Shown here in pieces: positions 27,263 to 31,203 of a stretch of 64,000 bases of DNA. Each line of letters begins with the position of its first letter. Within the stretch, counting starts at the first letter, position 1. Under the pieces are notes generated by a model. The model had not been told where the DNA came from, did not search any database, and saw only the letters and a list, made by a program, of their open reading frames with translations. The position numbers and the translations under genes were made by a program. The DNA comes from Eledone cirrhosa. Taxonomy: Eukaryota. The stretch spans positions 215,574,001-215,638,000 of the forward strand of contig OZ024743.1 in the NCBI GenBank assembly GCA_964016885.1. Direction: 5' to 3'.

Positions 27263-27529
27263 ATATATATATATATATATATATATATATATATATATAT
27301 ATATATATATATATATATATATATATATATATATATATATATATATATATATATATATATATATATATATGTACGTATAAAAATATACATACATTTAAGT
27401 ACCAGCCGTACTAAGGGTGAGAAATGAAATTTTGTTTCATTCTTTTCCATTTATCGTTTTCGGTGCGCCGATATGTAAATTAGACTGCTCAGCCGTTAAT
27501 TTTCATAGGGAAAGTATATACTTTCGAAC

Positions 27530-27616
27530 GTTCAACCATCTGGCAGAAGGGTATACGGTGCTGATGATAGCTAAGAAGCTTGAAACTAGTACATCGTTCC
27601 TGTGTCAGTGTTGAAC
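27530..27616 (+). ncRNA. Type-I hammerhead ribozyme, intact core (predicted cleavage after GTA at 27591)
   Basis: acggtg-CTGATGA-t-agct aaga agct-t-GAAA-ctagT-A-catcgt. Stem I is extended by aggg/tcct, ctggca/tgtcag and gttcaac/gttgaac. Confidence 0.88.
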
Positions 27617-28170
27617 AAAAAGGTGACGATGATTGCCTGAACACTGTACGGCGTAATTTGGGCTCTTTGTTTACTAACAAACCGAGCATTATAATAAATG
27701 TTCGGTAAACCCATACGTACATGTATATATGTGTGCATGTATGTATATATATACACACTACTGTACGTCTGTATATGTATGTACATATACATACATACTT
27801 ACATCTAAGTACCAGCCGTACTAAGTGTGAGAAATTAAATTCCGTTTCATTCTTTTCCATTTATATATATATATATATATACATATATATATATATATAT
27901 ACATATATATAAGTTGTAAAAGAATGAAACGACATTTTATTTCTCACTCCTTAGGGCACTTACTTCAATGTAAGTATGTATGTATACGTACATACACATA
28001 TGTAAACAGACGTATACGTATAAGTGCCGTACTAAGAGTGAGAAATGAAATTTCGTTTCATTCTTTTACAACTTATTGTTTTCGGTACGCCTGGCCGACT
28101 TAACTCACTCGATATGCAAATCAGGCTGCTCAGCCGTTAGGTTTCATAAGGAAATTATATACTTTCGAAC

Positions 28171-28257
28171 GTTCAACCATCTGGCAGAAGGGTATACGGT
28201 GCTGATGATAGCTAAGAAGCTTGAATCTAGTACATCGTTCCTGTGTCAGTGTTGAAC
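28171..28257 (+). ncRNA. Type-I hammerhead, mutated (GAAA>GAAT)
   Basis: Same fold as 27530, with A15.1 substituted. Confidence 0.75.
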
Positions 28258-28630
28258 AAAAAAGGTGACGTGGTGGCCTTAAAACCGTACGGCATAAATC
28301 AGGCTGTCCTTTTGTTTACAAACGGACAAAGCGGGCGTTATAATAAACGTCCGCTAAATTGATACGTACATATATATATATGTGTACCTGTATTGATATA
28401 TATATATATATATATATGCATGCTGATGTACGTCTGTGTACATATATGTATGTACGTACGTATACATACTTACATTTAAGTAAGTGCCGTACAAAGAGTG
28501 AGAAATGAAATTTCGTTTCATTCTTTTACAACTTATCGTTTTCGATACGCCTGGCCGACTGAACTCACTCGATATGCAAACTAGGCTGCTCAGCCCTTAA
28601 TTTTCATAAGGAAAGTATATACATTCGAAA

Positions 28631-28717
28631 GTTCAACCATCTGGCAGAAGGGTATACGGTGCTGATGATAGCTAAGAAGCTTGAAACTAGTACATCGTTC
28701 CTGTGTCAGTGTTGAAC
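28631..28717 (+). ncRNA. Type-I hammerhead ribozyme, intact core (predicted cleavage after 28692)
   Basis: Same sequence as the HHR at 27530. Confidence 0.88.
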
Positions 28718-29163
28718 AAAAAGGTGACGTGGTTGCCTTAACACAGTACGGCATAAATCAAGCTGTCCGTTTGTTTACAAACGGACAAAGTGGCCGTTAT
28801 AATAAACGTCCGCTAAACTGATACGTACATATATATATGTGTACCTGTATGTATATATATATATATATATATATATATATATATATATATATATATATAT
28901 ATATATATATATATATATATATATATATATATATATATATATATATATATGCATGCTACTGTACGTCTTTATACATATATGTATGTACATAGACATACAT
29001 ACTTACATTTAAGTAAGTGCCGTCCTAAGAGTGAGAAATGAAATTTCGTTTCATTCTTTTACAACTTATCCTTTTCAGTACGCCTGGCCGACTGAACTCA
29101 CTCGATATGCAAATTAGGCTGCTCAGCCGTTAATTTTCATAAGGAAAGTATATACTTTCGAAG

Positions 29164-29250
29164 GTTCAACCATCTGGCAGAAGGGTATACGGTGCTGATG
29201 ATAGCTAAGAAGCTTGAAACTAGAACATCGTTCCTGTGTCAGTGTTGAAC
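29164..29250 (+). ncRNA. Type-I hammerhead, mutated cleavage triplet (GTA>GAA)
   Basis: Same fold, with U16.1 substituted. Confidence 0.75.
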
Positions 29251-31203
29251 AAAAAGGTGACGTGGTTGCCTTAATACCGTACACCATAAATCAGCGGGCG
29301 TTATAATAAACGTCCGCTAAACTGATACGTACATATATATATGTGTGCCTGTATGTATATATATATATATATATATATATATATATATATATATATATAT
29401 ATATATATAAGAAGCTACTGTACGTCTGTATACATATATGTATGTACGTATACATACATACTTACATGTATATATATATATATATATATATATATATATA
29501 TATATATATATATATATATATATATATATATATATATATATATATATATATATATATATATATATATATATGCATATTGTTTTTTTTTCACTTCTTTTCA
29601 CATAAATCTTTATCATATTTTATTCCATGAATTTATTGTTCCATTGGATACCGTTGCGAAGACTATCATTTATGTTATCTATCTACATTGATAATAACAA
29701 TATATACCATTTTGCTGATAATCAAGTAACGAAATACAGTTATATGACATTGTTATATATAATTATATTGTTTGCAAGGGTATCAATGATTGAACACGCA
29801 CTTTGTATGATATTGTTGGTGTTGACGACAACGTACCGCAATGCATCTTCTTTGAAGAACATATTAACCGCATCCAGTCTTACGATTACAATATGAAATG
29901 AGTTAATTCAAATTCATATTTGCAGCGAGGAGGATAACAGGTGATGAAAATATTTCTGACACCGAATGTAAACTTGACAACGAATGGTATATTAATCATC
30001 CTAATTATTATGATGATCACTATGTAGATCCTCTTTCTAATAGTCATCAACACCATTATTTCCATCACGAATATCTTTCTATATATGTTCACCATAATAA
30101 GACAATTCTTGACAGCAAATACATTATTATCAACATCATAATCAGCACCATCACTAACACCGTCAGCATAACCTTCACACTAGAAATAACACGATCATTA
30201 CAGTAATATTATGATGATGATCATCATTAACTTCATAAATATTATCATTTACAAGGCATCTCCAAATGTGATTTTTTTTTGTATTTCTACACATCTGTCT
30301 TGATATTCTTTACACAAAATATGTTTTATAATCACATTTTAATAACCTTTCCAAGTAAGCAGAATCTCTAGTCTAACCCGAAGGATTTATCGTCAGTATT
30401 TTCAACAGAAGAGTCATCTTCAAAATATTAATTAATTTTCGGCTAGACATTATATCTAACAATCTATTATGCGAAAATCAAAATGTAATTTAATAGAAAG
30501 TGAGAATCAATTGAACAGTGGAAGAACTGTAGTTGGCAGCAATTTAATAACTTTTTCTTGACATGTCAGAGACAAAGATTCTATCTATTTGGATCAGTTC
30601 CCTTAAGGGTATTCACAAGTCAAATACACATTTTATATAGCTCTTCCAAATCAAATAAGCCTCATTACCATTAAAGTGTCAGTGTGCAAAATAAATTGTA
30701 TTACATACACGCAAACATATGAACATACACATGCATTCATATATTCACATTTGTCGTATTACTTTATACACACACACACACACACACACACAAACACACA
30801 AACAGACACACACACACACACATACACACACACACACACACACACACACACACACACACACACACATATATATATATATAAACATATATCATTATAAAAT
30901 ATTGAATGGCATATATGTACGCATAAATATCCAATGATATAAATGCATAAGACATATCAACCTTTAACAAAGATACATGTGAGGGAGATATATATATGAT
31001 TTTTATAAGGTATCGATGTTTTAAATTTTTGTTAAATTTTAATGTATTCTTACATTCTATACAAGTTGTCTCTTGTTAAAGATTGATATGTCTTATGCAT
31101 TTATATATTTGGATATTTATGTGTATATATATGTCATTCACTATTTTATAATAATTAATTGCTACGATTTATTCTTTGAATTTTTTCTATGAGCTGATTA
31201 TGG

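Follow-up and report, generated by a model that had tools for sequence, protein, structure and literature searches.

A tandem hammerhead ribozyme repeat in TA microsatellites of Eledone cirrhosa: a probable non-LTR retrozyme with insertion marks of Penelope-like elements

The present study concerns a hammerhead ribozyme repeat in a 64,000-nt stretch of the Eledone cirrhosa genome (GCA_964016885.1, contig OZ024743.1, positions 215,574,001 to 215,638,000 of the forward strand), which is referred to as the window and in which positions are counted from the first letter. We consider the repeat to be a likely non-LTR (long terminal repeat) retrozyme that was copied into TA microsatellites by the reverse transcriptase (RT) and endonuclease of a Penelope-like element (PLE). 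A previous sequence-only reading described it as retrozyme-like, and this description is supported by a type I hammerhead fold in 4/4 units, the head-to-tail arrangement of non-coding units of 410, 460, and 533 nt, and a GC content below 50%. The animal non-LTR retrozymes described in PMC7229834 and 10.64898/2026.07.22.740005 (these and all other papers are cited here from parts of their text) are similar in that non-coding units stand head to tail, each with a canonical type I hammerhead, and in their low GC content, high copy number, highly self-paired monomer, and the presence of PLEs in the same genome. Their units are 150-450 nt long in the former and 51-972 nt in the latter, in comparison with 410-533 nt here.

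Hammerhead cores and a sister array

The starts of the four type I hammerhead cores lie at 27561, 28202, 28662, and 29195, with H17 at 27591, 28232, 28692, and 29225 and, hence, H17-to-H17 spacings of 641, 460, and 533 nt. The scan confirmed the four places given in the sequence-only reading as well as its distinction between two intact cores (27561 and 28662) and two with single core mutations. The hammerheads, all on the plus strand, occupy 27548..27601 (core 27561-27591 intact, predicted cut after 27591), 28189..28242 (A15.1>U), 28649..28702 (core 28662-28692 intact, predicted stem I over approximately 28631-28717), and 29182..29235 (U16.1>A). A signature consisting of the core, helix II, and a 6-bp stem I was found at six sites in the window and at none in 40 simulated 64-kb sequences.

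The ribozyme of the repeat combines a 6-bp helix I, a 4-bp helix II that stands on a U.U base, and a helix III formed by a 6-nt palindrome. Metazoan type I hammerheads of the canonical kind have been described as having a helix I of 6 bp, a helix II of 4 bp, and a helix III of 1-2 bp with a palindromic loop, the weakness of which requires a dimer (PMC4209133), and the sequence of the present ribozyme matches this description. The long and bulged stem I noted previously was reproduced by folding, which predicts that it extends to approximately 23 bp and that a UAU bulge follows the first 6 bp (z -2.3). The 460-nt monomer folds far better than its shuffles (z -7), to which its TA content contributes, whereas the minimum-energy structure of a cofolded core pair was not the palindrome-paired dimer, a calculation that is uninformative for hammerheads. 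Among the axolotl ribozymes, HHR_Amex1 has a helix III consisting of one pair, with a palindromic tetraloop, and HHR_Amex2 a U.U at the base of helix II, and for both, cleavage is poor in the monomer and improves in the dimer (PMC7229834); the present ribozyme joins the two weak features, and its predicted stem I is much longer.

The minus-strand array at 37172-38775 consists of 312-nt units that are 99% alike and looks younger; 5/5 of its cores are intact, two of them with one stem I mismatch each, and its 3' end abuts (TA)n, with an internal (AT)4 three bases away. The two arrays had been regarded as unrelated, which holds for the unit bodies, where no convincing similarity was detected outside the core, but is incorrect for the ribozyme, because one degenerate pattern recovers all nine cores of both arrays (0 expected; 0 in 100 shuffles). 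The hammerheads of both align without gaps over 54 nt, pairing is kept in 77/80 cells (33-54% in slid controls), and 7/16 pairs change on both sides, including the palindrome center, in a set of five distinct rows that amounts to two families. The two ribozymes are sister designs with one unusual architecture. In both arrays, a terminal stem-loop region with TTCG approximately 20 nt before the 3' end was also noted (28514-28535 on the plus strand and 37183-37215 on the minus strand), and may represent a common RT signal. A 25-nt likeness between the tail of the repeat and the reverse complement of the core of the sister array (E 0.03) was set aside as probable chance.

Two insertions between TA tracts and the marks of a Penelope-like element

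The sequence of the locus reads as two insertions, A and B, and not as one array. Insertion A (27371..27863, plus strand) comprises an 83-nt 5' stub (27371-27453) and one 410-nt unit (27454-27863), and finishes at the position referred to as the long 3' end. It is separated from the 3' end of a decayed PLE by (AT)55 (27261..27370) and is followed by a middle TA tract (27864..27909), which family 3' ends abut on both sides, that of A on the plus strand and that of the inverted arm of B on the minus strand; these two tracts and the TA tract of the right flank (29468..29571) are likely target DNA. The inverted arm of insertion B (27910..28014, minus strand) is approximately 105 nt long, 5'-truncated, and finishes at the long 3' end with subtype-B letters. 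The direct arm (28021..29467, plus strand) starts with a 55-nt tail piece, continues with units of 460 nt (28076-28535) and 533 nt (28536-29068) and the unit 29069-29467, and ends at a short 3' end (29467), 60 nt ahead of the long end.

One set of diagnostic letters is carried by the two terminal segments of insertion A and another by the four segments of insertion B, and identity over the 140 nt upstream of the cleavage site is 93-96% among B units and 88-91% between A and B. The length of the first spacing, 641 nt, is explained by what hammerheads 1 and 2 enclose, namely, a tract of target TA and a truncated copy in inverted orientation. No target-site duplication was readable because the flanks are (TA)n. 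The array was not detected by a TRF tandem-repeat search, and no LTR, primer-binding site, or polypurine tract was apparent on reading, for which no dedicated search was run. The GC content of 28001-30000 is 0.32, and only two frames overlap the units, both of low complexity and 121-123 aa long. The chain of hairpins described in the sequence-only reading exists, except that the second hairpin is deleted in unit 4 (29 nt) and different in unit 1. A 10-bp hairpin at 28330..28355 (plus strand; other copies at 27681-27706, 28789-28814, and 29293-29318) shows three double-sided changes between A and B, which 13/500 shuffles matched and which could also stem from DNA palindrome correction.

Of the four family 3' ends in the window, three (27863, 27910, and that of a solo stub at 32557) share the long end as their last base and enter TA. 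The fourth, at 29467, lies 60 nt earlier in the loop of the first predicted stem-loop of the tail, and 4/4 join TA-rich DNA. The tail between the short and long ends is exemplified by 28476..28535 (plus strand, 60 nt, two predicted stem-loops). The solo stub (32557..32614, minus strand) is 58 nt of tail only, stops at the long 3' end, and has TA-rich DNA on both sides; similar to the start of the direct arm of B, it is the segment between the short and long ends. In B, the tail is present at one end only, with the long end on the inverted arm and the short end, a single case, on the direct arm, the two being 58-60 nt apart.

The insertion signature of PLEs consists of partial tandems, a truncated copy in inverted orientation, and a tail confined to one end (PMC8557442), the tail being the stretch between two internal RT start sites on the RNA, without homology to the cut DNA (PMC11167929). 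A 5'-truncated partial tandem in A, an inverted 5'-truncated arm in B, and a bias to TA were all found here. Similar combinations of 5' truncation, a partial tandem, an inverted copy, and a tail are known for the Neptune/Nematis and Naiad PLEs and non-autonomous Chlamys elements such as MRC1 (PMC8557442) and for Poseidon PAc (PMC11167929), as is a microsatellite bias, to TA in Naiads, and non-autonomous copies arranged head to tail are also on record (PMC8557442). In contrast to these PLEs, the repeat has no open reading frame (ORF), its hammerhead is canonical rather than minimal, and its tail is 58-60 nt rather than 30-40 nt.

The copies of the adjacent decayed PLE (21404-27260) stand partly inverted and partly in tandem, its minimal hammerheads are located at 21592 (minus strand), 25942, and 27015, and a further truncated copy lies near 40000 (39950-40420, minus strand). 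Its 5'-truncated copy at 26210..27260 (plus strand), located outside the unit and regarded as a candidate partner family, has a CX4CxxC linker, together with a GIY-YIG at the C terminus; the remnants of the RT and GIY-YIG are both below Pfam cut-offs. The linker is a mark of the Neptune and Nematis clades (PMC8557442), and the element is called Neptune/Nematis-like from this motif alone. Three long ends and one short end approximately 57 nt apart were found for this PLE, all joined to TA, and the long end at which it finishes is separated from insertion A by 110 bp of AT. Its hammerhead cores have a long helix II and an extra base after A9 and are of the minimal type, unlike the 4-bp U.U helix II of the repeat, and within the window no PLE ORF was found in register with the repeat in its unit. 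On sequence grounds, the repeat is not the terminal repeat of this PLE. The long end of the repeat in unit 3 (28534-28548) and the short end of the PLE (26132-26146) are identical at 13/15 positions and both can form a 3-bp mini-hairpin; this match, found post hoc, is weaker in other units and stands at opposite ends of the two tails.

In the contigs of one public sample, the family is of high copy: 6381, 5643, and 5860 contigs from three runs matched a 461-nt unit, counts that do not equal copy numbers and come from a sample that may be of a different species than the window (best word share 0.45). Five of the 18 loose ends listed (407 in all), supported by 17-37 contigs each, leave the unit at 28524-28527 into TA-like sequence, and two of those listed show the same end running on into the next unit. 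The 31-nt core accounts for two of the 37 variable positions listed for 28473-28767, namely, N7 and the third base of loop II, which are both expected to be free to vary; by our own arithmetic, the chance of zero variants at the other 29 core positions is approximately 0.02, among the positions listed (11 more rows exist). Dips in depth at 28532-28563 and beyond 28756 coincide with subtype indels and were dropped as signs of truncation. Among the sequencing runs, no RNA run was listed as containing the repeat, and no contigs of the small-share run X5 fell on the unit, neither of which has a bearing on expression; exact pattern scans returned no stretches in metagenome contigs or viral contigs.

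The internal TA tract and the origin of the repeat

An internal (TA)n is located at one fixed place in 4/4 units and in both subtypes, with n of 5, 10, 49, and 27, as the sequence-only reading proposed for the units of the window. It forms the center of a domain of 84-189 nt in which purines and pyrimidines alternate and which is predicted to fold as one long hairpin. On the plus strand, these domains span 27713..27796 in unit 1 (79/83 steps alternating; pure (TA)5 at 27744-27753), 28362..28476 in unit 2 (103/114 steps; pure (TA)10 at 28397-28416, the apex of the predicted hairpin), 28821..29009 in unit 3 (pure (TA)49 at 28852-28949), and 29325..29467 in unit 4 (pure (TA)27 at 29356-29409). 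That the 460- and 533-nt lengths differ mainly by this tract was verified, since their TA-rich domains measure 61 and 135 nt, a difference of 74 nt against 73 nt between the spacings; errors of assembly in the tract lengths are possible. The flanks of the tract in unit 2 alternate at 30/33 and 51/58 steps, in comparison with 173/343 in the unit body, as expected of a decayed microsatellite, and the domain looks like an old interrupted microsatellite that became fixed in the unit.

The tract sits 110-119 nt from the main, long 3' end, because of which we consider it to be probably captured target DNA, a passenger rather than a targeting device, which lengthens by slippage. None of the four ends in the window is inside the pure tract, while two junctions, the 5' junction of A and the short 3' end of B, fall in the alternating domain beside it. 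The suggestion that the repeat carries a target-like microsatellite with which it seeds new TA tracts was not demonstrated: 3/4 ends are fixed 110-119 nt downstream, the window already holds 37 pure (TA)n runs with n of at least 10, and subtype A has only (TA)5.

In the favored scenario, multimeric transcripts would be cleaved through a double hammerhead, which we infer from a helix III that amounts to no more than a 6-nt palindrome and from the U.U with which helix II begins, and the monomers would be circularized. By the geometry of a double hammerhead, site 2 may be cuttable with a partner and site 4 may not, because core 2 keeps the cleavage triplet and core 4 keeps GAAA. A PLE protein would then nick (TA)n and start reverse transcription at one of two internal sites on the RNA, which would produce the tail, and the RT may continue beyond the cleavage site, on a template that is either circular or uncleaved, resulting in 1.2 units in A and approximately three in B. 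Old target DNA, once captured, may have become part of the unit and lengthened by slippage after insertion; the route of capture may be that anything between two hammerheads becomes a monomer, as in the 641-nt interval.

Several observations weigh against this scenario. Self-cleavage, RNA, and circles are predicted here from the sequence and none was observed, and 8/9 predicted Xenopus retrozymes were uncleaved in vitro (10.64898/2026.07.22.740005). Rfam gave no match at the gathering score (HH9 with 18 bits versus 52, on units 1 and 3), and its 120 matches at E<=10 were mostly to low-complexity miRNA families. Complete hammerheads never occur in two consecutive units, intact 1 and 3 alternating with changed 2 and 4, which places the locus outside the retrozymes termed active by Li et al. 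2026 (two consecutive complete hammerheads). One pair of stem I would be broken by a T>G change at 28695, which makes up approximately 35% of depth and has no compensating change among the positions listed. The loop II letter of insertions A and B is G, at a place where approximately 99% of the family depth in run X14 is C or U; two independent arrivals are hard to reconcile with such a shared rare letter, unless another species or individual was sampled. The short 3' end was seen once in the repeat and once in the PLE, and could be a deletion, while no significant similarity was detected between the repeat unit and the terminal repeat of the neighboring PLE (best E 0.09 over 12 nt). Moreover, the contig survey skipped 28340-28428, that is, the tract in other copies.

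It is conceivable but doubtful that the retrozyme swallowed a piece of its own (TA)n target and that the circle uses the domain as an annealing pad for the RT of a PLE, planting with each copy an expanding TA tract that serves as a new landing site. We are equally hesitant about two further elements of this proposal, namely, that a Neptune-like PLE drives the process while sharing only tail length and the 10-nt junction motif and no terminal repeat, and that the 641-nt interval is a capture in progress. Similarly unlikely is a functional domain in the more general sense, which would pair with nicked (TA)n to allow priming or template jumps, each new copy bringing in a TA tract that expands, so that the family feeds the microsatellite load of the genome. 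The constant place of the tract in both subtypes, the two junctions in the alternating domain beside it, the (AT)4 three bases from the 3' end of the sister array, and a length change from 5 to 49 repeats within the family are consistent with such a role. However, the main end is located 110-119 nt downstream, the pure tract contains none of the four ends in the window, homology is not required for PLE priming in vitro (PMC11167929), TA tracts are everywhere in the window, and internal proto-microsatellites are common in mobile elements (PMC3812793 and PMC2374699).

We regard it as improbable that the unit derives from an unseen PLE family as its terminal repeat, which became detached and was amplified locally as a DNA satellite with an inherited and maybe idle hammerhead. 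This model, which is that of a 2026 preprint (10.64898/2026.07.22.740005), would accommodate the 93-96% identity of the B units over 140 nt, the loop II letter shared by A and B, and the finding that hammerhead cleavage is dispensable for PLE insertion in vitro (PMC11167929). On the other hand, the hammerhead is of the canonical type with tertiary contacts and not the minimal type of metazoan pLTRs (Penelope-like terminal repeats), the subtype letters of an insertion agree between its two ends in A as well as in B, and reverse transcription is indicated by the inverted arm and the defined ends. The least credible origin of the fold is as a product of chance or of assembly in DNA of low complexity, since, even though TA tract lengths in assemblies can mislead and the window contains 200 N, such an origin of the ribozyme has already been refuted by the absence of the signature in 40 simulations and 100 shuffles, the covariation, and the thousands of matching contigs in the public sample.

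Other elements of the window and significance of the repeat

Further elements were observed in the window. A third hammerhead-like family at 46965-47300 is an inverted pair with cores at 47055 (minus strand) and 47197 (plus strand), a long helix II, and a palindromic helix III, and its minus copy ends in (TA)n; a likeness of the repeat to this family (E 0.09) was set aside. A solo signature at 56178 (minus strand) with a helix II of approximately 10 bp, a helix III of 4 bp, and a stem I of 7 bp could, from its predicted pairing, work as a monomer. A second PLE family at 7075-13895, which may resemble the Hydra clade, has RT and C-terminal GIY-YIG-like frames, inverted and tandem copies, and a hammerhead-like core at 11382. 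At 38776-39150, a nested palindromic block of TA, CA, and TG repeats lies between two inverted, mutually facing stub copies of approximately 40 nt, which is probably another TA-joined element, and related 140-nt two-copy tandem repeats are present at 3059-3339 and 45936-46207.

A microsatellite bias of PLEs, non-autonomous tandem PLEs, and internal microsatellites in mobile elements are each known separately. DINE-1/mini-me, Alu, and L1 carry a variable microsatellite at a fixed internal position that is expandable after insertion (PMC2374699 and PMC3812793), but have no hammerhead and are not tandem retrozymes, and in the present repeat the internal motif is the same dinucleotide as that of the flanking target. 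An internal microsatellite, a (TA)n site, an inverted truncated arm, and a two-end tail were not encountered in the available parts of the animal retrozyme papers, and the lack of similarity to the terminal repeat of the neighboring PLE differs from the pLTR-derived retrozymes of 10.64898/2026.07.22.740005. The word microsatellite is absent from the available text of PMC7229834 and PMC7761336, and the passages of PMC8490949 contain nothing on microsatellites. At the level of titles and the beginnings of abstracts, in a search that did not extend to most subscription journals or Repbase, no retrozyme with TA targeting, a PLE tail, or an internal microsatellite was found described, which leaves room for similar cases in Figure S6 of PMC7229834 and the supplements of the 2026 preprint. 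A retrozyme with TA targeting and the tail footprint of a PLE is a known kind of element in a combination that we did not find described.

The internal TA tract is the less surprising part of these results. The enzyme that moves animal retrozymes is still argued from co-occurrence and the similarity of terminal repeats, and the probable retrozyme described here, without detectable similarity to the neighboring PLE, bears the marks of this class in its inverted truncated arm, its two 3' ends, and a tail similar to that of the local PLE. From the mapped ends, the start sites to be expected in the in vitro PLE assay that already exists can be predicted exactly. Furthermore, two families in one window share an unusual and probably dimer-dependent hammerhead together with its natural mutants, which may offer a setting for complementation.

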